Shown: positions 882 through 42,342, counted from the stretch's first letter. The stretch: DNA of 64,000 nt from Candidatus Doudnabacteria bacterium (GCA_963837465.1 CAWINB010000001.1:437646-501645), one strand, 5' to 3'. The notes: generated by a model from the sequence alone, not told the origin. Translations and numbers: made by a program.

Positions 882-944
882 GTAGTTAGCCCGATTTTCT
901 GGGGCTGTCCAAATATTTTAACAGCTGATAAATCAGCTAACTAC
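882..944. repeat. Compound palindromic element, family A, copy 1 (GTAGTTAGCC-hairpin … hairpin-GGCTAACTAC), intergenic upstream of purL
   Basis: gtagttagcccgattttctggggctgtcc…aacagctgataaatcagctaactac; the arms are reverse complements and each half carries its own hairpin. Confidence 0.85.
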
Positions 945-1093
945 ATTATTACAAAAAATTGACCTAAGGGTATTTTCCTGTTAAACTGCGGGTGAGGAAA
1001 CCACGGATACACAGATTAAAAAATAGATAGTGCGGATACTCATTTAAGCCTCCCAAATCCAAAATTATTTTCAGGGAGTTTTTTGTTTTTAGG

Positions 1094-1121
1094 TTAATTG
1101 TTAATTGTTAATTGTTAATTG
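1094..1121. repeat. Heptanucleotide tandem repeat (TTAATTG)x4 immediately 5' of the purL start
   Basis: Four perfect copies read directly. Confidence 0.9.
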
Positions 1122-1126
1122 TTGTT

Positions 1127-4100
1127 ATGCTTAGGTTATACGTCCAATCAACTATCCCCGATGCCCGGGCCGAGGTTAAAAAAAAGCAGTTTAGCGCCTT
1201 GGGAATAAAAAGCAAAATAGGAATGGTGTGTCTGGCGGATTGTTATACTATTGATTGTGCTCTGAATAAAAAACAAACTGAAAAAGCAAAAATTCTGCTG
1301 GCCAATCCCCTGGCGCAGGAAGTTAGCTTGGATGCAGATGTAGTTAGCCGATTTATCGGCTGCCCTGATAAGATAACAGCCCATAAATGGGCTAACTACA
1401 AGGGCCAAGCACAATCGACCTTCTCATACGCTATAGAAATCGGCTTTCTGCCGGGAGTGACGGATAATATTGGGCACACGGCAAAAGAAACGCTGGCCGA
1501 TGGCGCCAAAATCAAATTTAAAGACGGGCAGAATGTTTATTCAAGCGCCGTCTTTTTTGTTTTGTTTAAACCGGAACGCAGCGGGCAAAATCCTCGATCG
1601 CCGATAAATCGGCACGCTACGGCGGATATCCAAAAAATCGCCAACTCGCTTTATAATCCGCTTATCCAAAAAGCTACAATAACATCGGCGGCTGATTTTA
1701 AGCGCCGGGGGGATTTGGATTTTTCCGTGCCTAAAGTTAAATTGTCCGCCAGCAGCAAAGTTAGCAGGGTTAATTTGAATGTTGGGGATGAGGAGCTAAT
1801 TAAGTTGGGAAAGTTGGGCATTCCCGATAGTGTCATTGCGAGGAGGAGTGCCTCCGACGACGAAGCAATCTTATTTAAATCCAGAAAAAAGATTGCCGCG
1901 TCGGCCAGACAAAGCCCCCAACTTCGCCAAGGCTTTGTCGGGCAGGCTGGCCTCCTGGCAATGACACTAAGGCGGGGACCGCTCGCGCTATCCCTGGAAG
2001 AACTTAAAGCCATCCGCGATTATTTTAAGCGCCGCAACAGGCGGCCCACGGACATAGAACTGGAAATGCTGGCCCAGACCTGGAGCGAACACTGCAAGCA
2101 CACTATTTTTAACGATCCCATAGACGAACTAAAAGACGGGCTTTATAAAACTTACATAAAAAAAGCCACGGAAGTTATCCGCAGGCAAAAAACACGCACA
2201 CAGCGGAACAAGGGGAATCCTAGTGCCGCGCTAGGATTCCCCTTGTTGGCAGGCGACTTCTGTGTTTCCGTGTTTACCGACAACGCCGGAGGGATTTCGT
2301 TTGACGAGGATAATATAATTGCCTACAAAGTGGAAACCCACAACACGCCTTCGGCGCTGGACCCGTTTGGCGGCAGCATCACAGGTCTTGTTGGCGTTAA
2401 CCGCGATGCTTTGGGTTTTGGCCTGGGCGCCAAACCAATTGCTAATTTTTACGGTTTTTGCCTGGCGGATCCGAATGATAAAGCAGAATTGTACAGGGAT
2501 AAAAATTTACGGCAGCCGATGCTGTCCAGCCGCCGCATTATGGACGGCGTTATTGCGGGCATTAATTCCGGCGGCAACCAAAGCGGCATCCCCACGCCTT
2601 TGGGTTTTTTATATTTTGATGACAGGTTCCGCGGCAAGCCGTTGGTATTTGCCGGCACCCTGGGCTTAATCCCAAAAAAAATCGGCAACAGGCTGGGCCA
2701 TGTAAAAAAGGCGCGGCCCGGGGACTTAATAGTTACAGTCGGCGGCCGCGTGGGAGCCGACGGCATCCACGGCGCAACTTTTTCTTCCGAAGGGTTGTCA
2801 GAACACAGCCCGGCCACGGCCGTACAGATTGGCGACCCGATTACCCAAAAAAAATTCAGCGATGCCATTTGCAAAGAAATACGGGATATGAACTTATACA
2901 ACAGCATTACCGACTGCGGCGCCGGCGGTTTGTCTTCGGCCGTGGGCGAAACGGCTGAACAGGCAGGCGGTTGCGAAGTGTATCTTGACAAAGTTCCTTT
3001 AAAATATCCCGGACTTGCCCCGTGGCAAATCTGGATTTCCGAAAGCCAGGAAAGGATGGTTTTGGCCGTGCCGCCCGCCAAGTGGAAAAAATTTGAAAAA
3101 CTGATGGAAGCGCGGGGCGTGGAGGCGGCTGCAATCGGAAAATTTACAGCCGGCGGAAACTGCGTTGTAAAATACGGCGGCAAAACTATTTTGGATATTA
3201 AAATGGATTTTCTGCGCAACGGCCGGCCGAAAAAACATCTAAAAACCGAAAAACCAACATCGACAAAAATCAATCATGTCCGAAAATTGGAAATTGGAAA
3301 TTGGAAATTGGAAATCCTGCGCCTTCTTGCTTCTGCCAACATCACCTCCTCCGAATTCGTTTCCACCCAATACGACCACGAAGTCCAGGGGGGCAGCGCG
3401 CTTAAACCTTTGCAGGGCGCGGGGCGGGTAAACGGCGAGGCTTCTGTAATCCGCCCACTTTTAAATTCCCAAAAAGGCGTGGTGCTTTCTTACGGTTTGG
3501 CGCCGGAGCTTTCGGAAGTCAACCCGTACGCTATGGCCGGAGCTTCCATAGACAGCGCCATCCGTGCCGCCGTGGCCGCCGGAGCCAATGTGGATTATCT
3601 GGCTTTACTGGATAATTTTTGCTGGTGCAGTCCGGACGACCGGCGGCGTTTATGGCAACTTAAGGAAGCCGCGCGCGCCTGTTATGATTTTGCCGTGGCT
3701 TTTGGCACTCCTTTTATTTCCGGCAAAGATAGTATGTATAACGATTTTAAAGGATTTTCGGCTGACGGACAGCCGCTGAAAATTTCCATCCCTCCCACTC
3801 TGCTGATTTCGGCCGTGGGCGTAATTCCCGACGTTACAAAAGCCATATCTTTAGACGCCAAGCTTCCCGGCGACCTGATTTATATTTTAGGAGATACGGA
3901 TGATGATTTAAAAAACGGCAATGTAGTGCAGGCCCGTGGCCTGGCTCCCGCCTATGTCAACGCCCAAAAAAACCTGTCCCTCTACCGCGCCTTTTATAAA
4001 GCCGCCCAAAAAAACTTAATTGCCTCGGCAATTTCCATAAACCGCGGCGGCATGGCTATTGCTTTAGCTAAAAACCTAATTGGCGGCAATTTAGGCGCGG

Positions 4101-4366
4101 AAATAGGTTTAAAAAAAATTCCCGGTAATTGGCAGGAAAATAGCCGCGCTTTATTTAGTGAAAGCCAGGGCCGGATATTAGCGGGCATTAATCCAAAAAA
4201 ATCGGCGGAATTTGAAAAAATAATGCGGGGGAATATTTTTGCCAAAATCGGCCACATAACAGCACGAACGAATTTAAACATTATCGATAAGTCCGGCAAA
4301 AAAGTCGTACAAATTAAAACTTCCGACATGACTCGGGCTTACAAATCTACTTTTAAGAACTATTGA
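1127..4366 (+). CDS. purL: Phosphoribosylformylglycinamidine (FGAM) synthase PurL, with a large-PurL-type N-terminal (PurS-like) domain but no fused glutaminase
   Basis: N-terminus aligns with E. coli PurL (SAFRINKLL / ADLNAPLNDDEHAQLERLL vs FSALGIKSKI / DCALNKKQTEKAKILL); WSEHCKH, VETHNTPSA and QYDHEVQGG motifs; the ORF track starts at TTG 1112, ATG 1127 is more likely; TGA stop. Confidence 0.9.
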   Translation: MLRLYVQSTIPDARAEVKKKQFSALGIKSKIGMVCLADCYTIDCALNKKQTEKAKILLANPLAQEVSLDADVVSRFIGCPDKITAHKWANYKGQAQSTFSYAIEIGFLPGVTDNIGHTAKETLADGAKIKFKDGQNVYSSAVFFVLFKPERSGQNPRSPINRHATADIQKIANSLYNPLIQKATITSAADFKRRGDLDFSVPKVKLSASSKVSRVNLNVGDEELIKLGKLGIPDSVIARRSASDDEAILFKSRKKIAASARQSPQLRQGFVGQAGLLAMTLRRGPLALSLEELKAIRDYFKRRNRRPTDIELEMLAQTWSEHCKHTIFNDPIDELKDGLYKTYIKKATEVIRRQKTRTQRNKGNPSAALGFPLLAGDFCVSVFTDNAGGISFDEDNIIAYKVETHNTPSALDPFGGSITGLVGVNRDALGFGLGAKPIANFYGFCLADPNDKAELYRDKNLRQPMLSSRRIMDGVIAGINSGGNQSGIPTPLGFLYFDDRFRGKPLVFAGTLGLIPKKIGNRLGHVKKARPGDLIVTVGGRVGADGIHGATFSSEGLSEHSPATAVQIGDPITQKKFSDAICKEIRDMNLYNSITDCGAGGLSSAVGETAEQAGGCEVYLDKVPLKYPGLAPWQIWISESQERMVLAVPPAKWKKFEKLMEARGVEAAAIGKFTAGGNCVVKYGGKTILDIKMDFLRNGRPKKHLKTEKPTSTKINHVRKLEIGNWKLEILRLLASANITSSEFVSTQYDHEVQGGSALKPLQGAGRVNGEASVIRPLLNSQKGVVLSYGLAPELSEVNPYAMAGASIDSAIRAAVAAGANVDYLALLDNFCWCSPDDRRRLWQLKEAARACYDFAVAFGTPFISGKDSMYNDFKGFSADGQPLKISIPPTLLISAVGVIPDVTKAISLDAKLPGDLIYILGDTDDDLKNGNVVQARGLAPAYVNAQKNLSLYRAFYKAAQKNLIASAISINRGGMAIALAKNLIGGNLGAEIGLKKIPGNWQENSRALFSESQGRILAGINPKKSAEFEKIMRGNIFAKIGHITARTNLNIIDKSGKKVVQIKTSDMTRAYKSTFKNY
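1340..1399. repeat. Family A palindromic element, copy 2, in-frame inside the purL N-domain (encodes VVSRFIGCPDKITAHKWANY)
   Basis: gtagttagccgatttatcggctg…aacagcccataaatgggctaactac, 60 nt, a multiple of 3; the homologous E. coli segment is shorter. Confidence 0.8.
2207..2247. repeat. 41-nt perfect hairpin palindrome in-frame inside purL (17-nt arms aacaaggggaatcctag / ctaggattccccttgtt, 7-nt loop)
   Basis: Read directly; encodes NKGNPSAALGFPLL in a region about 14 aa longer than the E. coli PurL equivalent. Confidence 0.8.
3284..3311. repeat. Heptanucleotide tandem repeat (AAATTGG)x4 inside the purL coding sequence (encodes KLEIGNWKLEI in an interdomain linker)
   Basis: Four perfect tandem heptamers read directly. 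Confidence 0.9.
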
Positions 4367-4372
4367 TAGCAT

Positions 4373-4431
4373 GTAGTTAGCCGATTTATCGGCTGTTATA
4401 AAAATTGACAGCCCATAAATGGGCTAACTAC
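4373..4431. repeat. Family A palindromic element, copy 3, filling the purL-purQ spacer
   Basis: gtagttagccgatttatcggctgtt ataaaaattg acagcccataaatgggctaactac. Confidence 0.85.
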
Positions 4432-4445
4432 GCTCAAATATTCTT

Positions 4446-5228
4446 ATGCTGAACCCCCCAAAAATCCTCATCCTCTCCGGCTACGGCCTCAACTGCGAAC
4501 AGGAAACCGCGTTGGCTTTTAATTTGTCCGGCGGGGCTTCGGATATTGTCCATATAAACGATCTAATTGCCGCGCCAAAAAAACTCGCGCGATACCAAAT
4601 CCTGGCAATTCCCGGAGGCTTTTCCTACGGCGATGATTTGGGATCAGGCCGCGCTTACGCCAATAAATTAAACAGCCATTTAAAACAACAGTTGGCGGAT
4701 TTTGCTTCCAAAGACAAACTGGTCATGGGCATTTGCAACGGCTTCCAAATTTTAACCAACCTCGGGCTGCTGCCCGGCGTCCTGACTTTTAACGACAACT
4801 ACCGCTACACCGACCGCTGGGTGGATGTGTCAAGGGTGACCCTTGACACTAGCCCCTGGCTGAAAGGCATTAAAACGCTTTCTTTGCCCATAGCCCACGG
4901 TGAAGGCAAATTCGCGGCCGACGCGAAAACCCTCAAATCCATCCAACAACAAAATATGATTGGTGCTGTATACTATAAGGGTGACGTTTGCGGCTACCAA
5001 AGCCTGCCTCCGAATCCCAACGGCTCTATGCTGGACATAGCTATGCTGACATCGGCAAACGGAAAAATCCTGGGCACTATGCCCCACCCCGAACGCGCCA
5101 TCTTTTTTACCCAAACCCCCGACTGGCCGCTGCAGAAGGAAAAATTAATAAGAGCGGGCAAACTGCTTCCCGAATATGGTCCCGGATTGCAGATTTTTAA
5201 AAATGCCGTGGAATATTTCACCAATTAA
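4446..5228 (+). CDS. purQ: FGAM synthase glutamine amidotransferase subunit PurQ
   Basis: GMCNGFQ catalytic Cys motif, PIAHGEG, MPHPER; TAA stop. Confidence 0.9.
   Translation: MLNPPKILILSGYGLNCEQETALAFNLSGGASDIVHINDLIAAPKKLARYQILAIPGGFSYGDDLGSGRAYANKLNSHLKQQLADFASKDKLVMGICNGFQILTNLGLLPGVLTFNDNYRYTDRWVDVSRVTLDTSPWLKGIKTLSLPIAHGEGKFAADAKTLKSIQQQNMIGAVYYKGDVCGYQSLPPNPNGSMLDIAMLTSANGKILGTMPHPERAIFFTQTPDWPLQKEKLIRAGKLLPEYGPGLQIFKNAVEYFTN
4827..4849. repeat. 23-nt perfect palindrome gtgtcaagggtgacccttgacac inside purQ (encodes DVSRVTLDTS); an identical copy lies at 28960-28982
   Basis: Exact 23/23 identity between two unrelated genes 24 kb apart. Confidence 0.85.
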
Positions 5229-5234
5229 GTATGA

Positions 5235-5396
5235 GAAGCTGTTTAAAAAGTCATTTGGGCCGCAATTCCAGAATGTTTGGCGCCTTGCCGGAAAAAATTT
5301 TTCCGCTTAGCTTTAGGCTAAACGTCAAAATTTGTTTCCGTCAATCCGCGCAAAATTCTGTAATTTCGCCTACAAAGCACTTTTTAAACATCTTCT
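5235..5396 (+). mobile_element. MITE family 1, copy R1 (162 bp; TIR GAAGCTGTTTAAAAAG / CTTTTTAAACATCTTC; flanking TGA/TGA duplication)
   Basis: Near-identical copies at 26685-26845 and 34507-34668 in opposite orientation; 16-nt terminal inverted repeats; 3-bp TNA direct repeats. Confidence 0.8.
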
Positions 5397-5629
5397 GAGA
5401 GAATCTGACCTTATTGAGCGATATGAAGAAAACATAATGCTAGGACTGTGCGATCAAGCCAGCCACACTGGTTTTATGGATGCCTGTACAAATTTTCCAA
5501 AAAACGACCAATACGCCCAATCAATAGTTACTAGAAAAATTAGTATAACAGAGAAAGATAGGCTCATATTGTCCCAGGCGTACCAAGATGGTTACGCAAG
5601 AGGATTAATTAAAAAAGCAAGAATCGACA

Positions 5630-5737
5630 ATGAACGACTTAAATGAAAAATGCGGAGTCTTTGGGATTTTTGGTAAGAACTTGGACGTCAGCCGTCTGAC
5701 TTTTTACGGTTTGTTCGCGCTGCAGCATCGGGGTTAG
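5630..5737 (+). pseudogene. purF: purF N-terminal segment (propeptide MNDLNEK, then Cys1 nucleophile CGVFGIFG…LQHRG) ending at an in-frame TAG (5735-5737) where homologues have Gln
   Basis: Same frame as the downstream purF ORF; aligns with B. subtilis PurF MLAEIKGLNEECGVFGIWG…LQHRGQEGAG. Confidence 0.7.
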
Positions 5738-5755
5738 GAGTCATCGGGAATTGCC

Positions 5756-7051
5756 GTGTCCGATGGCAACCATATGGATGCTTACAAAAATATGGGTTTG
5801 GTAACACAGGTTTACAAAGAAGAAACCATTCAAAACCTTAAAGGGCATATTGCCATTGGCCACAATCGATATTCTACATCCGAAGGCTCGCACATCAAAC
5901 ACGCCCAACCAATAGTCATAAACAACCAACTGGCCCTGGCGCACAACGGCAATTTGCCATCGGTAAAAGCTTTAAAAGAATTTTTGGAAGCCAAGGATAT
6001 CGCCACAAATGACTGCAGTGATTCCGAGCTGATGGCAAAAGCGCTGGGTTATTATTTGGAACATGGCAACTCCATTAAAGACGCGGTTATAAAAGCTTAT
6101 CCGCTTTTTACCGGCGCTTTTTGTTTGACAATTTTAACCAAAGATTGTTTGGTGGCCGTAAGGGATACTTATGGCGTGCGACCGCTTTCCCTTGGCAAAA
6201 TAAATGGCGACGCGACTGTTGTAGCTTCGGAAACCTGCGCTTTCCACACCGTGGGCGCGGAATTTACGCGCGAAGTCCAGCCGGGTGAAATGGTTATTGT
6301 CAGCGACAAGGGAATTGAATCGGTGCAGATAGAACCGTCCCAAACCAAACTGGATATTTTTGAATTTGTTTATTTCGCGCGGCCCGACAGCCAAATTCTG
6401 GGCAAATCCGTTTACCAGGTCCGGCGCGACTCCGGCATCCAGCTGGCCAGGGAATGCCCCATTGATGCCGACATAATCGTACCCGTGCCGGAAACCGCGC
6501 TGCCGGTTGCCACCGGCTACAGCAAGCAAAGCGGCATTCCCATGGAAATGGCTTTGGTAAAAAACCGCTACATCCACCGCACTTTCATCCAGCCCGAACA
6601 GCACAGCCGCGACCTGGGGGTAAAATTAAAGCTCACTCCCCTGCCCGAAATTTTATCCGGCAAAAAAATTGTGGTAATGGACGACTCTATTGTAAGGGGC
6701 ACCACCTCGCGTCAATTGGTAAAAATGTTGTTTGAGGCGGGATGCGAGGAAGTCCATATGCTCATAAGTTCGCCGCCGGTAAAATTTCCGGACTTTTACG
6801 GCATAGACACGCCCAAGCAAAAAGATTTAATCGCCGCGCGTAAAACCGTGGAAGAAATCAGGATGTATTTGGGCGCGACTTCGCTTTACTTTTTATCTTT
6901 AAAAGGCTTAATAGAAGCCACCGGACTTTCCGAAGATGTTTTTTGCACCTCCTGCTTCACCGGAAAATATCCCATAGATTTACTGGAACGCGAGACTGAA
7001 GTTCAGCAGCCGACATACGCGGAAATTAAATCTCCGGGCGCTTTATTTTAA
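5756..7051 (+). CDS. purF: Amidophosphoribosyltransferase PurF, the portion downstream of the in-frame TAG; the functional gene would be 5630..7051
   Basis: ESSGIAVSDG…IGHNRYSTSEG (Ntn glutaminase domain) and C-terminal PRTase domain (VVMDDSIVRGTT); the ORF track starts at a GTG directly after the TAG. Confidence 0.85.
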   Translation: MSDGNHMDAYKNMGLVTQVYKEETIQNLKGHIAIGHNRYSTSEGSHIKHAQPIVINNQLALAHNGNLPSVKALKEFLEAKDIATNDCSDSELMAKALGYYLEHGNSIKDAVIKAYPLFTGAFCLTILTKDCLVAVRDTYGVRPLSLGKINGDATVVASETCAFHTVGAEFTREVQPGEMVIVSDKGIESVQIEPSQTKLDIFEFVYFARPDSQILGKSVYQVRRDSGIQLARECPIDADIIVPVPETALPVATGYSKQSGIPMEMALVKNRYIHRTFIQPEQHSRDLGVKLKLTPLPEILSGKKIVVMDDSIVRGTTSRQLVKMLFEAGCEEVHMLISSPPVKFPDFYGIDTPKQKDLIAARKTVEEIRMYLGATSLYFLSLKGLIEATGLSEDVFCTSCFTGKYPIDLLERETEVQQPTYAEIKSPGALF

Positions 7052-7127
7052 CTTAAAAGCGCCATCCCGGAATTTTAAGGGCTGTTAAAATATCCAGGAT
7101 CCAGAACCATACAACATAGTTATAAAT

Positions 7128-7724
7128 ATGCAAATTGTAATCCTAATTTCCAACGCCGGAACCGGCACTAATTTGCAGGCTATCATTAACGGCATTGGGG
7201 CCGGCCAAATAAAAGCCCGAATCGCGGCGGTGATTTGCGACAAAGCCGGCGCGCCGGGACTGGAGCGCGCTGAAAAAAGTAATTTACCCGCAAAAATTTG
7301 CCCGAAAAAAGAGGAATTGCTGCCGCTGCTAAAAAAACTTAATCCCGATTACATTTGCCTGGCCGGCTGGAAACAAATAATTCTGGACGAAGTTATTTTG
7401 GCTTTTCCAAACAAAATTTTAAATCTGCATCCGGGCTTAATTCCCGACAGAGCCGATGGTAGCGTAAAAAATCCCGACGGCACAGAGGGGCTTTGGAACA
7501 AAGGCATGTTGACCACAAAAGCTATTCAAAATTTCTTGGACCAAAAGGCCACGTTCGCCGGCTCATCCATCCATTTTTTATCTCTGGAATTTGATTTTGG
7601 CCCGGTGCTGGGCAGGTGTTTTGAAAAAATTGCGGCTGGCGATACGGTTGATGATTTGTATAAAAGACTGAAGGAAAAAGAAAACCGGTTGTACGTGGAA
7701 GTTTTAACAAAGCTTAACGGGTGA
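7128..7724 (+). CDS. purN: Phosphoribosylglycinamide formyltransferase PurN (with an insertion of about 18 aa)
   Basis: N-terminal MQIVILISNAGTGTNLQAII and NLHPGLIP motifs; TGA stop. Confidence 0.8.
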   Translation: MQIVILISNAGTGTNLQAIINGIGAGQIKARIAAVICDKAGAPGLERAEKSNLPAKICPKKEELLPLLKKLNPDYICLAGWKQIILDEVILAFPNKILNLHPGLIPDRADGSVKNPDGTEGLWNKGMLTTKAIQNFLDQKATFAGSSIHFLSLEFDFGPVLGRCFEKIAAGDTVDDLYKRLKEKENRLYVEVLTKLNG

Positions 7725-7757
7725 TAATTTTGTCAATTTCTTAATTTTTGTTCAATT

Positions 7758-9164
7758 ATGGCAAATATTCTTGTCATCGGCTCGGGAGGGCGCGAACACG
7801 CTTTGGCGTGGAAGCTTAAGCAGTCGCCCAAGGTCGGCAAAATTTTTGCGGCGCCGGGGAACGGCGGCAGTTCTTTGCTGGCGGAAAATGTGGAGATTAA
7901 AGCTACAGACGTTTTGGCTTTGGCCGACTGGGCGGAAAACAATAAAATTGATTTTACGGTGGTCGGGCCGGATGACGCCCTGGCTTTGGGTATTGTGGAT
8001 GAATTCCAAAAAAGAGGCCTTAAAATTTGGGGGCCGGGCAAAGCCGCGGCTAAAATTGAATCCAGTAAGGCTTTTGCCAAAAAGCTGATGGAAGAAAATG
8101 ATATTCCGACGGCGGAGTTTAAGGTTTTTAATGATTACGGTCAAGCATTGTTATACGTTCAAAGCCATTTCCAAGGTAGCGTGCCCATCGCGTATCAAAG
8201 TATGGGACAAGCTTATGGGCGTCCTAGTTCGCCCATAAATGGGCACGCTACAAGACCCGTTGTCATCAAAGCCTCGGGCCTGGCCTTGGGCAAAGGCGTT
8301 GCCGTGTGCGAAACCTTGGACGAGGCCAAAAACTTTTTGCAAGACGTTATGGTCAATAAAATTTTCGGCGACTCCGGAAGTGAAGTCGTCATAGAAGAAT
8401 TTTTACAGGGCCGGGAATTTTCCGTCCACGCTTTTTGCGACGGCAAAAACTTTAAGCTTTTTCCGTCGGCGCAGGATCATAAAACCATTTACGACAATGA
8501 CCAAGGCCCCAACACCGGCGGTATGGGCGCCATTGCTCCGGTGCCGTGGGTTACAAATGACCTGATGAAACAAGTATCGTCGGAGATTGTAAAACCCGCG
8601 CTGGAAGGTTTAAAAAATCTGGGCTCGCCGTTTGTGGGGTTATTATATCCGGGATTGATGGCAATAACAGCCGATAAATCGGCTAACTACGCGGCTTTTG
8701 TAGTCAGCCCATTTATGGGCTCAATCAAAATTATAGAATTCAACGCCCGTTTCGGCGACCCCGAAACCCAAAGCTATATGCGCCTGCTGAAAACAGATCT
8801 TTACGATATTTTAGAAGCCTGCGTCAACGGCAGTTTGGACAAAATCAATATTGAGTGGTCAAAAAAGTCGGCCTGCTGCATAGTTTTAGCCAGCGGCGGC
8901 TACCCCGGCGAATACAAAAAAGGTTTGCCCATTACGGGAATTGCGGACGCGGAAAAAATGGATGATATCATAATTTTCCACGCCGGAACGGCAATCAAAG
9001 ATGGTCAATTAGTTACCAACGGTGGCCGCGTTTTAGGAGTCACGGCAATTGCAGATGATTTACAGACAGCGCTCAACAAAGCCTACACAGCCATCAAGCT
9101 AATCAATTTTAAAGGAATGCGATACAGAAGCGATATCGGGCAAAAAACTTTAACCTATGTTTGA
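7758..9164 (+). CDS. purD: Phosphoribosylamine-glycine ligase PurD carrying two in-frame palindromic insertions
   Basis: MANILVIGSGGREHALAWKL, VIKASGLALGKGV, GPNTGGMGA, EFNARFGDPETQ; TGA stop overlapping the next ATG (ATGTTTGA). Confidence 0.9.
   Translation: MANILVIGSGGREHALAWKLKQSPKVGKIFAAPGNGGSSLLAENVEIKATDVLALADWAENNKIDFTVVGPDDALALGIVDEFQKRGLKIWGPGKAAAKIESSKAFAKKLMEENDIPTAEFKVFNDYGQALLYVQSHFQGSVPIAYQSMGQAYGRPSSPINGHATRPVVIKASGLALGKGVAVCETLDEAKNFLQDVMVNKIFGDSGSEVVIEEFLQGREFSVHAFCDGKNFKLFPSAQDHKTIYDNDQGPNTGGMGAIAPVPWVTNDLMKQVSSEIVKPALEGLKNLGSPFVGLLYPGLMAITADKSANYAAFVVSPFMGSIKIIEFNARFGDPETQSYMRLLKTDLYDILEACVNGSLDKINIEWSKKSACCIVLASGGYPGEYKKGLPITGIADAEKMDDIIIFHAGTAIKDGQLVTNGGRVLGVTAIADDLQTALNKAYTAIKLINFKGMRYRSDIGQKTLTYV
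8176..8251. repeat. Divergent family A-like palindromic element in-frame inside purD (arms gtagcgtgcccat / atgggcacgctac; inner gcccataaatgggc)
   Basis: 13-nt perfect inverted arms; encodes about 25 extra residues relative to E. coli PurD just before the VIKADG motif. Confidence 0.7.
8667..8722. repeat. Family A palindromic element in-frame inside purD, in right-half then left-half order (aacagccgataaatcggctaactac … gtagtcagcccatttatgggct); encodes AITADKSANYAAFVVSPFMGS
   Basis: About 20-aa insertion between the conserved GLM and KVIEFN(C/A)RFGDPETQ motifs. Confidence 0.8.
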
Positions 9165-10008
9165 GCTTACCGAACAAATAAAAATTTGCAAAAAAACCCG
9201 GGAGCTGGCGTCTCAAACCGTGGCCGCGGTTTTATCTGAAAATAATTTGTCGGAAACGGGATTCTGCGCGAAATTAGCCCAAAGGCTTTATCAAAAACCC
9301 AATTGGGACCAAGGCTGGTACAGTCCGCCGCCAAAAGGCCTCGCGGCGCTGTTCGGTGTTGGGCGCGTGGCTTACGACAGCTTGCGCAAAGAAGAATTCT
9401 GGCCCAAAAACCGGTTTATTTTTTCCGGCGGTTCACTGGGTTACGTTTATGCCTCGCCAGTTAACAGGCTTAGCGGGATAATCGGCGATTTTGGCCTTAC
9501 AATTTATAAAGGCGCTGACCAAAAAATTATCAATCATATAAAAGTCTGTCTGGATATTACGGAAAAAACCGCCGAATACGCGCGGGCGGGTATGGAACTC
9601 CGGGAGGTTTACAATTACTGCCAGAAGCTGATGGCCGAAAAAGGCCTCAACAATAAAAGGATGCTGGCATATAATGACAAAACCAAAACTAACATAGGGC
9701 ATACTGTCCCCTGGAGTCATAAGCGGCCTTTGGATGAAGAATTTAAGATAATTGAAGATTCAAATTTTGAAAAACTTAAAGATCTCATCAGCTCAAAGCG
9801 GATAACATTAAACGCGCGAGAAACTTTTAAAATTCCCCCAACCATTGCTTTTACAATTGAACCTCGTATGGAAAACGACGAGAGTCCACTTGTCTCATTT
9901 CATATGATTGTGGCTTTTAAAGATGGCAAAAAAGAAATCCTGGCAAATTTCAAACCGGTTTTTCAGGCCTTAAATATGGATAAATTAATTGTCAGCAAGT
10001 ATGATTAA
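9157..10008 (+). CDS. Divergent M24-family (methionine aminopeptidase / pita-bread fold) protein of unknown role inside the pur operon
   Basis: Weak motif matches NIGHTVPW (HGIGH-like) and IAFTIEPRM (FTIEP); 283 aa; start overlaps the purD stop. Confidence 0.35.
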   Translation: MFELTEQIKICKKTRELASQTVAAVLSENNLSETGFCAKLAQRLYQKPNWDQGWYSPPPKGLAALFGVGRVAYDSLRKEEFWPKNRFIFSGGSLGYVYASPVNRLSGIIGDFGLTIYKGADQKIINHIKVCLDITEKTAEYARAGMELREVYNYCQKLMAEKGLNNKRMLAYNDKTKTNIGHTVPWSHKRPLDEEFKIIEDSNFEKLKDLISSKRITLNARETFKIPPTIAFTIEPRMENDESPLVSFHMIVAFKDGKKEILANFKPVFQALNMDKLIVSKYD

Positions 10009-10672
10009 ACTCATTGCTTTTGACTGGAATGGCACTTTGCTTTCGGATGCCGCCCTTACCGTTAAAGCCGAAAATAAGGCTTTAACAGCTGTAGGGGTAA
10101 AGCCAATAACCCTGACAGAATTTAGGGAAGCTTTTGACATACCTATAACAAAATATTGGAAAAATATCGGTTTCTCGGACAAATTCGCTAAAGCCAACCT
10201 CCGGACTCTTGAAGACGTGTTTCATTTAAACTATAAAAAAATGACGGCCAAGGCAGAAACACGCTCGGGGGTCAGGGAAATTTTAAAATGGTTGAAAAAA
10301 ATAAGAATTAAAACGGTTATTTACAGCAACCACGACATACCGGACATTAAAAGACATTTGTCCCGACTAAAATTAAGCGGACTCCTGGATGAGGTCTTAG
10401 CCAACAAAGCGGACGAGCGGCTGCAGGTTTTTATAAGGCATAAGGGTGAAAAGCTTCACCGTTACTGCCTGAAAAATAAAATTAAGCCTCACGAAATAAT
10501 TTCCGTTGGAGATATGGAAGAGGAAATAGACATTGCCAAAAAATACGGCTACCACAGTGTCGCGCTTACCGGAGGTTTTAATTCCACCGTCCAGCTAAAA
10601 AGTAAGCATCCTGACTTTTTAATCAACAACATGAGAGAACTTATAGGGATTATCAAAAAGCTTAATTCCTGA
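10001..10672 (+). CDS. HAD-superfamily hydrolase
   Basis: Motif I FDWNGTL and motif IV GDMEEEID; ATG 10001 overlaps the upstream stop (ATGATTAA); TGA stop. Confidence 0.65.
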   Translation: MIKLIAFDWNGTLLSDAALTVKAENKALTAVGVKPITLTEFREAFDIPITKYWKNIGFSDKFAKANLRTLEDVFHLNYKKMTAKAETRSGVREILKWLKKIRIKTVIYSNHDIPDIKRHLSRLKLSGLLDEVLANKADERLQVFIRHKGEKLHRYCLKNKIKPHEIISVGDMEEEIDIAKKYGYHSVALTGGFNSTVQLKSKHPDFLINNMRELIGIIKKLNS

Positions 10673-10716
10673 TAATATAAAGTTATAAATCTAATATTCT
10701 AAATCTTACATCTTAT

Positions 10717-11229
10717 ATGAATCCACTTGTAGGAATTCTAATGGGTAGTGACAGCGACCTTAATGTGATGCGGGAGGCGGCCAAGGTTTTGGAGGAATTT
10801 GGCGTGGGTTATGAAATAACCGTTTGTTCGGCCCATCGCACCCCGGAACGGGCGCATAAGTACGCGTCTACGGCAGTCGAAAGAGGCCTTAAAGTTATTG
10901 TTGCCAGCGCTGGCGGCGCGGCGCATTTAGCTGGAGTTATGGCGGCCAATACAACTCTGCCTGTTATTGGCGTGCCTATCAATTGGAAACTTAATGGCCT
11001 GGATTCCCTGCTATCCACCGCGCAAATGCCGCCGGGCGTTCCTGTGGCTACAGTAGGAATAGACGCCGGCAAAAACGCCGGACTGTTAGCCGTGCAAATT
11101 TTGGCAACGGCCGATGAAGCTTTAAGCAAAAAGCTTACCGACTACAAAACCAAAATGGCGGAACAAATAAACGCCAAAGCTAAAAAATTGGAAGAGATGG
11201 GGTATAAAAAATATTTGGAATCAAAGTAA
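10717..11229 (+). CDS. purE: AIR carboxylase / N5-CAIR mutase PurE
   Basis: GILMGSDSD…CSAHRTP…[18 protein letters not shown]. Confidence 0.9.
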
Positions 11230-11231
11230 AT

Positions 11232-11297
11232 GTAGTTAGCCCTATTTTCTGGGCTGTCCCCTACCATAAATTAACAGCCGATAAATCGGCTAACTAC
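11232..11297. repeat. Family A palindromic element, copy filling the purE-purM spacer
   Basis: gtagttagccctattttctgggctgtcc…aacagccgataaatcggctaactac. Confidence 0.85.
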
Positions 11298-11306
11298 AAA
11301 AACACG

Positions 11307-12440
11307 ATGACTAAATCAGAATACGCCAAATCCGGAGTGGACTATACTGTTATGGAGCCTTTTAAGATGGCTATGATCGCGGCCGGGAAGAAGACTTTAA
11401 AGTTCCCCAATAAGCGGAGGGTTTTTATTAACGAAGACGCGGCGCACGCCCACGGCGCCGTGTTTGAATACAGAGGCGCAAGTCCGCACATTTGGTGCCA
11501 GACCCAGGAAGATTTAGGGAACAAAAACTGGATAGCGGAATGGATGTATGAAAGGACGGGAAAAAGTTATTATGATTCCATAGCGATTGATACCGCGCTA
11601 ATTGTGGTCAACGATGTTATTGCCCAGGGCGCTATGCCCGTGGTTTTTACGGACCAACTGGAAGCATCGGAAAGTTCCTGGTATGCCGACGAAAAACGGG
11701 CTAAAGATTTCGCGGACGGATTTTTAAAAATCTGCGAGGAAGTCGGTATGGCTTTGCCGGCCGGCGAAAGCGCCAGTTGCACTTATTTGATTAACCCCAA
11801 GGCTCCGGTAAAACAAATTGCCACATTAAGCGGCTCGGTTACAGGAATTGTCGCGCCCAAACAAAATTTAATTACGGGACAAAAATTGCAGGCAGGAGAT
11901 CACATCATAGCGGTGTCATCATCTGGCCTGCACGCCAACGGAATTTCTTTGGTCATAAAAAAGGCCATGGAGTTGCCGGAGCAGTTTTTAACGAAAATTG
12001 ATACTGACGGCATGCCCCGGCATGCCGCTACGATCGGAGAACAAGCTTTAATCCCCACGCGATCTTACGTTAAGTTAATAGAAACGCTTTTGGAAAACCG
12101 GATTAAAATCCACGCCTTGCTCCCCGGCACCGGCGACGGCGTGGGCAAAATCGCCTTTGACCACCGCAGCTTTACTTACCGTATACATTCCTGGCTGCCT
12201 GTGCCGCCGCTTATGCGCTATTTTAAAGATGTGATAGGAATTAACATCCAGGACTGCCTAAAAACCTTTAACTGGGGTGTCGGCTACTATATTTTTACTC
12301 CGGCCGAGGAAGTTGATAGAATACTTAAGCTGGGTAAGCAGGCTGGTTACGAACTCGCGGATGTGGGAATTGTAGAAGCCGGAAAAAGACAAACAATTTT
12401 TGAACCTGAGAATATAACATTAAACCCTCCGGGGGAGTAA
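11307..12440 (+). CDS. purM: AIR synthase-related (PurM-like) protein
   Basis: YAKSGVDY and IAIDTALIVVNDVIAQGAMP align with PurM SYKDAGVDI / [20 protein letters not shown]; divergent, 377 aa. Confidence 0.65.
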   Translation: MTKSEYAKSGVDYTVMEPFKMAMIAAGKKTLKFPNKRRVFINEDAAHAHGAVFEYRGASPHIWCQTQEDLGNKNWIAEWMYERTGKSYYDSIAIDTALIVVNDVIAQGAMPVVFTDQLEASESSWYADEKRAKDFADGFLKICEEVGMALPAGESASCTYLINPKAPVKQIATLSGSVTGIVAPKQNLITGQKLQAGDHIIAVSSSGLHANGISLVIKKAMELPEQFLTKIDTDGMPRHAATIGEQALIPTRSYVKLIETLLENRIKIHALLPGTGDGVGKIAFDHRSFTYRIHSWLPVPPLMRYFKDVIGINIQDCLKTFNWGVGYYIFTPAEEVDRILKLGKQAGYELADVGIVEAGKRQTIFEPENITLNPPGE

Positions 12441-12448
12441 AAGTATCT

Positions 12449-12509
12449 GGTATTTTGTATAGTATTTAGCATGGAGACGCTTTGATACTAAATACTATAT
12501 ACAAAATAC
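12449..12509. repeat. AT-rich long hairpin (about 22-bp arms) in the purM-purC spacer
   Basis: ggtattttgtatagtatttagcat … atactaaatactatatacaaaatac; no U-tract follows. Confidence 0.6.
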
Positions 12510-12524
12510 TTAATACTACAAAAT

Positions 12525-13526
12525 ATGGACAAACAAACCATTGAAAAAAACTTAGACAGGGTGTTGGAAAAAACAGTTTTTTCCGCCAAAGGCGGATCCG
12601 CCTCCGGCGGAAAAAACCTTAACCTCGGCCAACGGCGGCAAGGGAAGGTGCGGGATATTTATACCCAAGCTGATAAGATTATTTTAGTATCAACCGATCG
12701 CTATAGCGCTTTTGACCGAAACCTGGCGCTTATTCCATTTAAGGGCCAAGTATTAACCCAGGTCAGCAAGTGGTGGTTTGAGCAGACCAAGGATATTATC
12801 CAGAACCATCTTATAGAAAGTCCGGACCCTAACGTGGTGGTGGTAAAAAAATGCTCGGTCATTCCAATAGAAATGGTGGTAAGGGGTTACATTACGGGCG
12901 TGACCGGCACATCTTTATGGACTTTGTACCAAAACGGCCAGCGGGATTTTGGCGACTTTACATTGCCGGACGGGATGAAAAAAAACCAAAAATTGGACAA
13001 GCCGGTGCTGACTCCCACGACCAAATCCGACGAGCACGACAAACCGCTGACGACCAAAGAAATAATTGAACAAAAAATCGTGCCCAAAGAACTGTGGAAA
13101 CAATTAGCAAGCACGGCGACCAAACTTTTTATCCGTGGTCAGGAGCTGGCTTTACAGCACGGGTTAATTTTAGTGGATACTAAGTATGAGTTTGGATTGG
13201 CTGATGATGGTAGGCTGATGTTAATAGACGAAATCCACACGCCGGATTCATCGCGCTACTGGCAGGCGGATTCCTACCAGGCCAGAATAGACGAAGGAAA
13301 AGAACCGCAGAATTTTGACAAAGAATTTTTAAGGTTGTGGTTTAAGGAAAATTCAAACCCCTACGAAGACAAAATTTTACCAAAAGCTCCCTCAGATATG
13401 ATAGCGGAACTTTCTTCCCGCTACATCCAGATTTTTGAACAAATTACCGGGGAAAAATTTGAGGCTGATTTGGACACGCCGATTGTGGAGAGGATAGAAA
13501 AGAATTTAAGACGTTTCGGAGTGTAG
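12525..13526 (+). CDS. purC: SAICAR synthetase PurC (long form)
   Basis: GKVRDIY, VVRGYITG, LILVDTKYEFG motifs; the TAG stop is supplied by the first bases of a family A element. Confidence 0.85.
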   Translation: MDKQTIEKNLDRVLEKTVFSAKGGSASGGKNLNLGQRRQGKVRDIYTQADKIILVSTDRYSAFDRNLALIPFKGQVLTQVSKWWFEQTKDIIQNHLIESPDPNVVVVKKCSVIPIEMVVRGYITGVTGTSLWTLYQNGQRDFGDFTLPDGMKKNQKLDKPVLTPTTKSDEHDKPLTTKEIIEQKIVPKELWKQLASTATKLFIRGQELALQHGLILVDTKYEFGLADDGRLMLIDEIHTPDSSRYWQADSYQARIDEGKEPQNFDKEFLRLWFKENSNPYEDKILPKAPSDMIAELSSRYIQIFEQITGEKFEADLDTPIVERIEKNLRRFGV

Positions 13527-13603
13527 TTAGCCCATTTATGGGCTGTTGAAATATTACTGTTGTTATTTAATAGTTTTGAACAGCCCATAAATGGGCTAAC
13601 TAC
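13523..13603. repeat. Family A palindromic element filling the purC-purB spacer (it overlaps the purC stop codon)
   Basis: gtagttagcccatttatgggctgtt…aacagcccataaatgggctaactac. Confidence 0.85.
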
Positions 13604-13607
13604 AACT

Positions 13608-14993
13608 ATGCTAAACTCCATCTCTCCTATCGACGGCCGCTACGGCAAAACCACCGAATCTTTAGCTAAATATTTCAGCGAAGCCGCGCTTATGAAATTC
13701 CGCCTTATTGTTGAAGGTGAATATTTAATCGCGCTGGCGGATTTAAAAGTCGCGCGGAAATTATCGGACAAAGAAAAGCAAACCATCCGCTCTTTGTATA
13801 ACTTGTCTGAAACCGATGCCCAAATAATTTCCGATATAGAAACCAGGGGCTACAAAAACATAAAAGCCACGGACCATGACGTTAAAGCCGTGGAGTATTT
13901 TATGAAGTATAAACTGGCAGAGACATCATTAAAAGATATTTTGGAATATCTGCATTTTGCGCTGACTTCCTATGATACCAATACTGTTGCTCGTGGATTA
14001 ATGCTAAGCGACGGCTTGGGGAACATCTTGCTGCCAAAAATTGATGAAATCATCAAAGCTTTAAACACTCTGGCAAAAAAATATGTTAGGCTGGCAATTT
14101 TAGCCCGCACTCACGGCCAGCCCGCTTCTCCAACGACTTTTGGCAAGGAATTTAAAGTCTTTGCGTTTCGTCTGGAAAAACAAATTCGATTACTTAAAAA
14201 TTTAAAAGTTTCGGTCAAATTCAGCGGCGCCAGCGGCAACTACAATGCCCATATGGCAGCTTATCCTAAAATTAATTGGTTAAAATTTTCGCAAAAATTC
14301 GTGGGGGGGTTTAATAAAAATCGAGCGGTTAAAATCGAGCTGAACGAAATTGCCACCCAAATTGACCCTCACGACCGCGAAGCGGAAATTTTTGACTGCC
14401 TGCGCCGCATTAATACTATCCTCATAGATTTTAACCAGGACATCTGGCGCTATATTTCCGATGATTGGATTGTTCAAAAACCAGTTGAGGGCGCCGTCGG
14501 CAGCAGCACAATGCCGCACAAAGTTAATCCGATTAAATTTGAGAACAGCGAAGGCAACCTGGGGCTGGCCAACGCGCTGTTTGAATTTTTCGCCCGCAAA
14601 CTGCCTGTTAGCCGGCTGCAAAGGGACTTGTCGGATTCCACGGTTGAGAGAAATTTCGGGACCGCTTTGGCGCACTGCTTAATCGCCTACGAATATCTGC
14701 TCAAAGGATTGTCGCGAATAACCATTAACGAACAAAAAGTCCGCGCCGACTTAAACAGCCATCCGGAAATTTTGGCCGAAGCCATGCAAACCGTCCTGCG
14801 GCGCGAAGGCCTTAAAATGCCTTATGAACAACTAAAGGAATTAACCCGCGGCAGACAAATCACTCTGGCTGACCTTCATAAATTTATTGGCGAGCTGAAC
14901 ATTAGCGATAAAGTAAAAAAAGAGCTCAAAACGTTTACTCCGGAAAATTATATTGGCCTGGCAAGCAAATTATCATCGGATAAATTTAAATAA
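13608..14993 (+). CDS. purB: Adenylosuccinate lyase PurB
   Basis: MLNSISPIDGRYG aligns with the E. coli PurB N-terminus (SPVDGRYG); HDVKAVEYF, SSTMPHKVNP; start is ATG 13608, the ORF track start at 13560 lies inside the repeat. Confidence 0.9.
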   Translation: MLNSISPIDGRYGKTTESLAKYFSEAALMKFRLIVEGEYLIALADLKVARKLSDKEKQTIRSLYNLSETDAQIISDIETRGYKNIKATDHDVKAVEYFMKYKLAETSLKDILEYLHFALTSYDTNTVARGLMLSDGLGNILLPKIDEIIKALNTLAKKYVRLAILARTHGQPASPTTFGKEFKVFAFRLEKQIRLLKNLKVSVKFSGASGNYNAHMAAYPKINWLKFSQKFVGGFNKNRAVKIELNEIATQIDPHDREAEIFDCLRRINTILIDFNQDIWRYISDDWIVQKPVEGAVGSSTMPHKVNPIKFENSEGNLGLANALFEFFARKLPVSRLQRDLSDSTVERNFGTALAHCLIAYEYLLKGLSRITINEQKVRADLNSHPEILAEAMQTVLRREGLKMPYEQLKELTRGRQITLADLHKFIGELNISDKVKKELKTFTPENYIGLASKLSSDKFK

Positions 14994-26449: not shown

Positions 26450-26684
26450 TTTGTTAGGGTTAAGGCTCTTGGCCTTATTCTAACATTTCGGAATTAATTT
26501 AGCAAGAGAGTATACACAGAGTTCAACTTGATTTAGGGGTTTCGGTAGATGACATAAAAGGGCCACCCAACATTTTCAAAAAAGAATAATCAAACTTTTA
26601 CTAAAAACTTATCCAACTGTTTTACCGCATACCCGTAACTTCCAGCGATTTGCACCCAATCCATAGTTCTATAATCGTCCCTAA

Positions 26685-26845
26685 GAAGATGTTTAAAAAG
26701 TGCTTTGTAGGCGAAATTACAGAATTTTGCGCGGATTGACGGAAACAAATTTTGACGTTTAGCCTAAAGCTAAGCGGAAAAATTTTTTCCGGCAAGGCGC
26801 CAAACATTCCGGAATTGCGGCCCAAATGACTTTTTAAACAGCTTC
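26685..26845 (-). mobile_element. MITE family 1, copy R2 (TAA/TAA duplication)
   Basis: Reverse complement of R1 with terminal GAAGATGTTTAAAAAG / CTTTTTAAACAGCTTC. Confidence 0.8.
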
Positions 26846-27036
26846 TAAGACCGCTCCACAAAAAACATCATCTTTCGTATGATGTTTTTTGTTTGCGCTT
26901 AAAGGCAATTATGACTCTGAGCTTAAAATTATATGGGAGAGCTGTAGTAGGGAATAAATATCGCCTGATTGACTAAAACCGCCAAAAACTATACAATACA
27001 TCCATAAATCCTACCCCGCAGCCGGGGTATATTTTT

Positions 27037-34116: not shown

Positions 34117-34495
34117 GAACCCGGCTAAAAAAATCCTGGTGGCGGAGGACGACCCGGGCATAACCGAGCTTATGAAAATAGCCTTAACCGGCCGGGGCTA
34201 TAAAATTTTAACGTGCGCCGACGGCTACAGGGTTCCGGGCGCGGTGGCCAAATTCGGGCCCGACCTGATTATTATGGATTTATGGCTGCCCGGAATTGAC
34301 GGGCAAAAACTGACAAAAAGGCTGAAAACCCAACCCGAAACCAAGGACATACCGATTGTCATAGTTTCGGCGCAAAGAAGACTTTCGGAAGTTGTAAAAA
34401 AATTTAAAGCGGACGGACATGTTTCCAAACCTTTTGATGTTAATAACTTGCTGAATTACGTTGAAAAATTTCTTTACCCGGATAGACAATTTTAA
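34109..34495 (+). CDS. Single-domain (CheY-like) response regulator
   Basis: ILVAEDDP…IIMDLWLPGIDG…SKPF. Confidence 0.8.
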   Translation: MNKNPAKKILVAEDDPGITELMKIALTGRGYKILTCADGYRVPGAVAKFGPDLIIMDLWLPGIDGQKLTKRLKTQPETKDIPIVIVSAQRRLSEVVKKFKADGHVSKPFDVNNLLNYVEKFLYPDRQF

Positions 34496-34506
34496 ACAGG
34501 CTCTTA

Positions 34507-34668
34507 GAAGATGTTTAAAAAGTGCTTTGTAGGCGAAATTACAGAATTTTGCGCGGATTGACGGAAACAAATTTTGACGTTTAGCCTAAAGCTAAGCGGA
34601 TAAATTTTTTCCGGCAAGGCGCCAAACATTCTGGAATCGCGGCCCAAATGACTTTTTAAACAGCTTCT
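34507..34668 (-). mobile_element. MITE family 1, copy R3 (TTA/TTA duplication)
   Basis: Same TIRs; interior about 95% identical to R2. Confidence 0.8.
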
Positions 34669-34671
34669 TAG

Positions 34672-34741
34672 AGGCTGTCGGAAAGTGGCTTTCGCCGGAA
34701 AATTCTGAAATCGCGGCAGAAATGGATCTTTTCAGACAGCC
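34672..34741. mobile_element. MITE family 2 (70 bp; TIR GAGGCTGTCGGAAAG / CTTTTCAGACAGCCTC) inserted immediately beside R3 and sharing its TTA
   Basis: A homologous copy lies at 51077-51147. Confidence 0.6.
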
Positions 34742-42179: not shown

Positions 42180-42251
42180 AGCCTGTTTAAAAATTCATTT
42201 TGGCCGCAATTTCAGGAATCCGCCCGCAAAAGCAATTTATTAAACAGGCTC
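42179..42251. mobile_element. MITE family 1, internally deleted copy R4 (73 bp; TIR GAGCCTGTTTAAAAA; TTA/TTA duplication)
   Basis: The ends and part of the interior match R1-R3. Confidence 0.65.
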
Positions 42252-42342
42252 TTAGAATCTATGATCAATAATTAAACCAAGGGTCCGGGATTTTCTTCCA
42301 AACTGTGTGGATAAAATTTCCAAAACCCGGAAACAATAACCA

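Follow-up and report, generated by a model that had tools for sequence, protein, structure and literature searches.

What kind of repeat can settle in the gaps of a purine-biosynthesis operon and, in the same operon, lie in frame inside its genes? This question is raised by 64,000 nt from Candidatus Doudnabacteria bacterium (the window, i.e. the whole stretch of DNA that was analysed), in which palindromic sequences recur between positions 882 and 13603, in and around the pur genes. The original prediction described nine copies of a compound palindrome of 60-80 nt and saw its nearest relatives in the Rickettsia palindromic elements (RPEs). We arrived at another description. The repeating entity is each half of ~24 nt and not the compound palindrome; each half is a repetitive extragenic palindrome (REP) tagged with GTAG, and the halves are nearly always joined as inverted heterodimers. 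We put the probability at about 85% that these elements belong to the GTAG-tagged REP/REPIN-RAYT family, in which two inverted REPs form one hairpin (REPIN) and are linked to a REP-associated tyrosine transposase (RAYT).

The motif GTAGTTAGCC, with at most one mismatch, has 16 matches in the window where 2.4 are expected; 12 of the 16 fall within 882-13603, and the remaining four each carry one mismatch and have no adjoining hairpin. The hairpin GCCSATTTATSGGC was found at 11 sites, all in 924-13596 (3.2 matches expected). A generic detector, which looks for GTAG and within 2-4 nt of it a perfect stem of 5 bp or more, returned 15 units, all within 944-13603 and none from 15 to 64 kb. Hence, a real repeat family is present that is absent from the other ~50 kb of the window, as had been predicted, and it amounts to 15 units at eight sites instead of nine copies (Table). 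One unit is composed of GTAG, a 3-nt linker and a 6-7 bp stem round an ATT(T/C)AT centre; with a linker of 2-3 nt, 253 such units were found across all DNA examined, i.e. the window and the related loci. Sub-family A, GTAGTTAGCC(C/G)ATTTAT(G/C)GGCTGT, is abundant and intact; of its 12 units in the window, two have a long loop and one is an A' variant (GTAGTCAGCC...GGCTCA). Sub-family B, GTAGCGTGCC...GGCG, is represented by three units, two on the minus strand at 1620 and 8251 and a disrupted left unit at 8176 that is split by ~24 nt. These B units look like decaying relics.

Table. Repeat sites of the window and the pur operon that hosts them (positions counted from the first nucleotide of the window).
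Feature	Position	Strand	Context and content
REP heterodimer, outward-facing	882-944		Intergenic, ends 182 nt upstream of purL ATG; left unit long-loop (GTAGTTAGCCCGATTTTCTGGGGCTGT), right unit with GCTGAT stem
A-type heterodimer, outward-facing, 60 nt	1340-1399		In frame in purL; GCCGAT unit + GCCCAT unit; encodes VVSRFIGCPDKITAHKWANY
Single B-type unit	1597-1620	-	In frame in purL; GTAGCGTGCCGATTTATCGGCG on the minus strand; encodes (P)RSPINRHAT
A-type heterodimer, outward-facing	4373-4431		purL/purQ gap, 6 nt past purL stop, 14 nt ahead of purQ ATG
B-type dimer, outward-facing (divergent)	8176-8251		purD site 1, in frame; head GTAGCGTGCC; right unit intact (SPINGHAT), left hairpin split by ~24 nt
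Inward-facing pair, GTAG heads inside	8667-8722		purD site 2, in frame; A unit (TADKSANY) + A' unit GTAGTCAGCC..GGCTCA (VVSPFMGS)
A-type heterodimer, outward-facing	11232-11297		purE/purM gap, 2 nt past stop, 9 nt ahead of ATG; long-loop unit + GCCGAT unit
Palindrome of another GTAG REP family (GTAGCGGCATGCCGGGGCATGCC)	12006-12031	-	In frame in purM; encodes DGMPRHAAT
A-type homodimer, outward-facing, 33-nt spacer	13523-13603		purC/purB gap; overlaps purC stop, ends 4 nt before purB ATG
Host operon	1127-14993	+	purL-purQ-purF(in-frame TAG)-purN-purD-M24-like-HAD-purE-purM-purC-purB; Pfam scans and list of open reading frames (ORFs)
purL	1127-4366		
purD	7758-9164		
purC	12525-13526		
purB	13608-14993		

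The pairing of units was followed in the window and in 58 related loci (L-numbers denote loci of related records and metagenome-assembled genomes (MAGs), P-numbers related proteins). Outward-facing pairs with GTAG outside prevail (42), next to five inward-facing and three tandem ones. All but one of the 42 outward-facing dimers combine one GCCCAT stem with one GCCGAT or GCTGAT stem; the only homodimer is the purC/purB copy of the window, which has the longest spacer as well. The dimers measure 50-81 nt, with spacers of 2-33 nt (median 10) that begin with TGT, finish with ACA and are otherwise variable. Almost all dimers are preceded by T (-1) and followed by A (+1), and no target-site duplication was found at these flanks. 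In L018, a tandem array of dimers occupies the purQ/purF gap. Single-stranded dimers fold as one long hairpin, with z-scores of -4.9 to -11.6 as DNA and -4.3 to -11.8 as RNA (-4.9 and -4.3, respectively, for the copy at 882-944); the long hairpin of a heterodimer carries two mismatches, and each unit's own stem is perfect.

That the local hairpin is conserved through compensatory changes rather than the primary sequence, as had been proposed, is confirmed by covariation. Units were chosen by GTAG head and loop alone (253, of which 126 are distinct), and the five unselected stem pairs were scored. Pairing was found in 94.0% of the cells compared to 60.8% in shuffles, and none of 500 shuffles reached the observed value. 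Double-sided changes were counted in 203 cells versus 54 in shuffles; they occur in all five stem pairs, and more than 20 stem variants exist. When the partner column was moved by 1-3 positions as a control, pairing fell to 21-45%.

The link to a transposase is provided by related genomes. A tblastn search of the related loci, in which an E. coli RayT sequence served as a probe only, matched two loci, L021 and L030, and each of them encodes a 137-aa protein between purC and purB which is ~26% identical to the E. coli enzyme over the aligned part. The protein matches the Pfam family Y1_Tnp (PF01797; E = 3.8e-8), and it scores 67-77 bits with the NCBIfam model NF047646 (REP_Tyr_transpos, REP-associated tyrosine transposase) compared to 18-26 bits with IS200. 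The one relative with a solved structure is E. coli TnpA-REP (PDB 4ER8; E = 1.4e-11), and the HUH histidines H65 and H67 together with the C-terminal tyrosine Y120 are invariant in 14 sequences. The family comprises 322 clusters in public data, several of them named RayT by JGI.

Inverted GTAG REPs tightly flank every RAYT copy that was examined (~25 loci). The pur-operon RAYTs of relatives have B-type flanking units, as do others of 72-77% identity located at pyrC/carA and beside clpB. Closer RAYT relatives are flanked by units with the related heads TGT, TCT, TTC and CGC, two metagenomic RAYTs of 59-66% identity (L059, L060) by A-type units, and RAYTs of 45-51% identity by units of the GTAGTT-GCCC/GCTC type. 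Since flanking stems and heads differ between RAYT relatives, the unit type tracks the relative of the transposase. More distant RAYTs were found at TatD/LeuRS (two genomes), GlyRS/M24 and patatin/murC, and the RAYTs retrieved by a metagenome scan with the RAYT profile were for the most part distant (33-66% identity) and lacked pur genes in their neighbourhood. Because RAYTs also reside at pyrC/carA, clpB, TatD/LeuRS and other places, the pur location is not universal and is true for one group of relatives.

Some further observations were made on these genes. In L149 (3001-3414) a RAYT is placed between dihydroorotase and carA of pyrimidine synthesis, and in L142 and L145 (6001-6414) between TatD and LeuRS, conserved in the two genomes; in such other housekeeping operons the RAYTs always have the same orientation as their neighbours and are REP-flanked. 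The RAYT homologue P0115 has no stop codon, reads into the downstream REP and ends with ...ADKSANYKNL. In the 64-kb window itself, no RAYT was detected by tblastn with the E. coli RayT or the Doudnabacteria RAYT, nor by Pfam scans; a weak tblastn match at 34217-34444 is a response regulator according to Pfam.

Most instructive for the history of the window is the purC/purB gap. The order purC-RAYT-purB exists in four related records, namely L021 and L030, which are close relatives of the window, L139/L140, and L144. The junctions of the window match those of relatives, the left one (cggagt/GTAG) as in L030 and the right one (CTAC/aactATG-purB) as in L139, and only the 81-nt dimer stands between them, which suggests that the RAYT gene was lost from this place in the window lineage. 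In L056, the purC/purB RAYT has likewise been lost and a ...CACGCTA remnant is left. The dimer in the window is of A and not of B type, thus its replacement or conversion would also be needed. The purC TAG stop (13524-13526) falls within the GTAG head of this dimer, i.e. one copy does supply the stop codon as predicted. In contrast, the intergenic copies do not fill their gaps exactly from stop to start: they lie 2-14 nt from the flanking codons, with the purC/purB copy overlapping the stop, and the copy in the purL leader stays 182 nt short of the ATG. At the purL/purQ junction, L036 has an orthologous dimer and L139 a different sequence; purE and purM of L139 overlap with no element between them. 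The different sequence of L139 (~1400-1485, at the position of the A dimer in the window) is an AT-rich inverted repeat with CTAACTAC ... GTAGTTAG, in which REP heads face inward without hairpins, and it may be a remnant or a related structure.

The E. coli system of REPs and bacterial interspersed mosaic elements (BIMEs) with TnpA-REP, the 'REPtron' (Ton-Hoang 2012, PMC3333891; 4ER8), has several features in common with the Doudnabacteria elements: GTAG 5' of a short palindrome (perfect or imperfect), inverse heterodimers (y/z in E. coli, GCCCAT/GCCGAT here), tandem arrays, and a small HUH/Y1 transposase gene between inverted REPs, with 4ER8 as the best solved relative. It differs in that the units here have 24 instead of 30-40 nt, perfect stems and a conserved ATTTAT centre, and in that the host belongs to Patescibacteria of the ~1-Mb class, with ~25% genic units and a RAYT within a biosynthetic operon. 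The REPIN-RAYT systems of Pseudomonas (Bertels & Rainey 2011, PMC3116915; Bertels 2017, PMC5581495) share the two inverted REPs with a short spacer that form one hairpin, the REP-flanked cognate RAYT, neighbours of the RAYT that are kept across genomes (here purC/purB and TatD/LeuRS), and several REP families each of which may have its own RAYT. In contrast to Pseudomonas, the spacers here are poorly conserved, many copies are translated, and copy numbers appear to be in the tens and not in the hundreds.

GTAG-dependent binding and cleavage of single-stranded REP DNA is known for the E. coli enzyme only (PMC3333891), and by analogy the Doudnabacteria RAYT is a predicted REP-cleaving enzyme. 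Following the literature on E. coli TnpA-REP and Pseudomonas REPINs, the RAYT would bind the folded single-stranded hairpin together with its GTAG tag, cut it and rejoin it, whereby dimers would be copied to new sites without a target duplication. Selection would then retain harmless copies only. Copies at gene ends donate stop codons, as at purC, where the same GTAG heads provide the TAG. The window lineage would have lost its purC/purB RAYT while retaining a dimer between the original junctions. The A units are probably served by a second RAYT that is encoded beyond the window; A-flanked RAYTs exist in metagenomes. At the RNA level, the copies within the operon probably work as hairpins, by partial transcription termination or by stabilisation of the upstream mRNA, in analogy to REPs that serve as partial terminators and mRNA stabilisers (bioRxiv 10.64898/2026.03.23.713779).

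Several points weigh against the assignment to REP/REPIN-RAYT. About one quarter of the units are genic (31/126 in long ORFs), which departs from the 'extragenic' definition, although genic copies are also part of published GTAG families. The doublet as the copied unit is supported by the heterodimers (41/42) and by identical-spacer copies in L018 and L040/L048; yet most dimer spacers differ in sequence and length, which makes the signal weaker than expected if dimers had recently been copied as units. The RAYT scores just under the NCBIfam equivalog cut-off of 80 bits. Furthermore, the majority A units differ from the type flanking the pur-operon RAYT, and their enzyme is postulated from only two metagenome loci, L059 and L060. 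Finally, with no RAYT within the window, the current mobility of its units is only putative.

Beyond the window, a census of MAG contigs with one exact 21-base pattern yielded 58 loci, distributed over at least 10 MAGs that bear the labels Candidatus Doudnabacteria, Patescibacteria or 'Saccharibacteria'; one MAG alone contributed 13 separate loci. Judged by conserved motifs only, the genic hosts in relatives appear to comprise LeuRS, SecA, GatB, a RarA-like ATPase, aminopeptidase N and PurH. Copies in many non-pur genes mean that the family is not pur-specific; the proposed confinement to the pur operon thus holds inside the 64-kb window but not outside it. PurH of relatives (GVKHGNPCGAA motif), encoded off the pur-operon contig, contains up to four in-frame REP units (L014 1536-2538; L047 3961-4110). 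Of ~66 exact matches, approximately 8 are located in pur genes or in the gaps between them, and pur genes would make up ~1.5% of an assumed 1-Mb genome, which suggests an ~8-fold enrichment of the repeats in pur genes, a rough value since genome sizes are assumed and the loci were picked by the pattern itself.

What causes this concentration is a separate matter from the identity of the elements. Instead of nearness to the RAYT gene, relaxed selection on a decaying purine pathway could have let copies accumulate, which we regard as the less probable cause but one to be taken seriously. It would agree with the in-frame TAG at a conserved Gln codon of purF, with purL being apparently split or frameshifted in several relatives, with several unrelated palindromic inserts in pur genes, and with the invasion of purH, which is located on another contig than the RAYT. 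However, the Pur proteins are 60-85% identical between species and have intact domains, the apparent frameshifts may be assembly errors, and the essential LeuRS, SecA and GatB were invaded as well. Moreover, the RAYT is situated inside the pur operon in the four records mentioned above, including the close relatives L021 and L030.

The in-frame copies predicted in purL (1340-1399, 1597-1620) and purD (8176-8251, 8667-8722) are confirmed by the reading frames and by empty orthologous sites; no relative was seen to carry the same PurD or PurL residues without palindromic DNA. In PurL, the ~23 residues encoded at 1340-1399 are absent from all 10 aligned homologues, including four at 60-67% identity. 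The region of the PurL B unit (PRSPINRHAT) is indel-variable within Doudnabacteria and empty in more distant homologues. PurD site 1 (after YVQSHF) is occupied by a B dimer in the window and a clean B dimer in L036, by a different GTAG family in L056 (~7427-7455) and by a third GTAG family in L021 (~1811), with nothing in L018. Similarly, PurD site 2 (GLM/KVIEFN) carries an A unit both in the window and in L021; L056 has a G-rich palindrome of unrelated sequence instead, and in L036 and L018 the site is empty. The site-2 A unit is identical in the window and L021 at 24/24 nt, compared to 69.5% identity of purD overall. Relative to solved PurD chains, site 1 corresponds to a 29-residue unaligned segment and site 2 to a 16-residue insertion. 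In PurM, DGMPRHAAT is a 6-residue insert relative to the PurM of L056, and the peptide DGMP(R/G)HAAT of the GTAGCGGCATGCCGGGGCATGCC family is also inserted in the PurL proteins P0121 and P0122. Altogether, the comparison of orthologues shows that different REP families came to occupy the same PurD loops independently in different lineages.

Genic copies persist only where a loop can accommodate 6-26 additional residues, and the sequence of the unit imposes an additional filter. Read forward, the A unit contains TAG in frames 2 and 3 (G/TAG, GT/AGT/TAG), and read backward it contains TAA in one frame. Because of these internal stops, genic copies survive in open frames only, and indeed all 46 genic readings among 180 units are in open frames (46/46). 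The recurring peptides are VVSxFxG(C/S) (e.g. VVSPFMGS), TA(D/H)K(S/W)ANY (e.g. TADKSANY) and SPINxHAT (e.g. SPINGHAT). A census of REP-encoded peptides with a 40-aa synthetic query gave no candidates, and with a 30-aa PurL segment as query, a search of 1.84 billion representatives yielded only chance matches to eukaryotic SRCR repeats.

Comparable behaviour has been described for the GTAG REPs of Opitutus terrae and other species, which donate TAG stops and are inserted in frame, as single units or dimers, in known proteins (Di Nocera 2013, PMC3733652). There, an intragenic dimer encodes 20-30 residues, and some genes carry two insertions (PMC3733652), all of which is also seen here. Phylum and unit sequence are different, and it is in the present elements that one protein loop is used independently by different families and that insertions cluster in nucleotide-biosynthesis genes.

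A more far-reaching interpretation can be drawn from these patterns. In ultra-small Patescibacteria with scant intergenic space, the REPIN-RAYT system might have shifted largely into genes, with several REP families recolonising the same surface loops. The RAYT in nucleotide operons (purC/purB, pyrC/carA) might create a local insertion hot-spot or be under control of the nucleotide status, and the peptide cassettes (VVSPFMGS...TADKSANY) or RNA hairpins might represent selected regulation instead of neutral passengers. We consider this extension unlikely.

Very unlikely, in our opinion, is an RPE-like or MITE-like family (miniature inverted-repeat transposable elements), in which the 60-80 nt palindrome itself is the element, an unidentified (e.g. 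DDE) transposase moves it, and the RAYT is incidental. In-frame palindromic inserts in housekeeping genes of a reduced genome were reportedly described for Rickettsia by Ogata et al. in 2000. RPE-1 has a size of 100-150 bp, and the short REP-like RPE-4 and RPE-6 carry the tag CGTC and form a superfamily without associated transposase gene (PMC3733652). The similarity to the present elements is real with regard to in-frame palindromic repeats that add short peptides at permissive sites of housekeeping proteins (PurL, PurD and PurM in the window; LeuRS, SecA, GatB and PurH in relatives). Long terminal inverted repeats, the strong single long hairpin, the lack of a RAYT in the window and the 41/42 heterodimers, which suggest the dimer as the copied unit, would fit as well. 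Nevertheless, the T...A flanks show no target-site duplication, no insertion sequence (IS) with such ends (TGTAGTTAGCC) was found in the window, and single units and inward-facing pairs occur. Pairing within each half is kept even where the halves mismatch each other, and units of this type flank all RAYT homologues that were examined, with stems that differ between RAYT relatives. The dimers of 50-81 nt are GTAG-tagged and, in sister genomes, RAYT-linked pairs of the REPIN/BIME type, unlike REP-like RPEs with their CGTC tag; hence, RPEs are not their nearest relatives.

Equally improbable is that the repeats are cis-regulatory hairpins of the purine operon, such as attenuators, RNase-processing sites or operator palindromes, for which mobility would be secondary or absent. 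It is true that 15/15 units of the window belong to the pur operon, that three intergenic copies lie no more than 6 nt from a stop codon, that the elements form highly stable RNA folds (z -4 to -12) and that REPs are able to tune the expression of operons in E. coli; several relatives likewise have copies in their pur genes, including purH elsewhere in the genome. But the copies of relatives are mostly outside pur genes (LeuRS, SecA, GatB, intergenic regions, many contigs), the positions in the operon vary by species, L139 has no copies except the RAYT flanks, and both unit orientations occur. A scan of Rfam for known RNA families or riboswitches returned only sub-threshold matches to microRNA precursors, which are typical of any long hairpin. 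An IS200/IS605 insertion sequence was rejected, as the 137-aa gene occupies fixed syntenic operon sites without tnpB and the 24-nt hairpin repeats, not the gene, and a phage origin as well, as neither unit type had an exact match in viral contigs.

The kind of element is known, and so are TAG donation and in-frame dimers of 20-30 codons; the host lineage is unreported in the searched literature. We found no paper there that links REP, REPIN or RAYT with Patescibacteria/Candidate Phyla Radiation, none for Doudnabacteria, and no report of a RAYT in nucleotide-biosynthesis operons, of a high genic fraction or of enzyme loops that different REP families have colonised repeatedly. REP/REPIN-RAYT systems would thus be extended to the Candidate Phyla Radiation. 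The PurD loops, being empty or filled with one or another family in sister genomes, are a natural experiment that maps permissive sites in conserved enzymes, and the element-internal stop codons give a view of which insertions survive the filter. The loss of the RAYT at purC/purB, with relic B units left behind, offers a case study of a REP population after transposase loss. In practical terms, such elements produce 'mystery insertions' in protein alignments and change gene ends in MAG annotation, and the repeats coincide with both ends of one short-read contig of the organism.

The operon contains some additional irregularities. In purF (ATG 5630), an in-frame TAG at 5735-5737 stands in place of the CAG (Gln) of the conserved HRGQES motif seen in L018; it is located downstream of the catalytic N-terminal Cys, and the longest ORF begins only at GTG 5756. 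Hence, purF is either a pseudogene, a sequencing error or a case of read-through. In-frame palindromic inserts that are not of the GTAG/ATTTAT type occur in purC (12576-12617), which adds 12 residues compared to L021, L030 and L139, and in purL (1828-1969 and 2207-2247), where more distant homologues have gaps. A palindrome in purQ (~4845) was ruled out as an insertion, being conserved coding sequence in all orthologues. Tandem heptamers were noticed as well: TTAATTG is repeated four times upstream of purL (1095-1125), with a similar run in the purC/purB gap of L056, and four GAAATTG repeats lie in frame inside purL (3285-3320), encoding KLEIGNWKLEI.

A second, unrelated MITE-like family of ~165 bp with terminal inverted repeats of 24-27 nt (AGAAGCTGTTTAAAAAGTCATTTG...) is present in the window at 5234-5396, 26681-26849, 34481-34693 and 42178-42252, i.e. 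three nearly identical full copies and one short relative, and one of the copies is placed between purQ and purF. By coordinate arithmetic, L141, a short-read contig of 6.8 kb from the same organism, has its ends at approximately 5783 and 12606 of the window. Its downstream end falls inside the purC palindrome, and its upstream end lies ~390 nt past the MITE-like copy (5234-5396); repeats may fragment short-read assemblies of these genomes.

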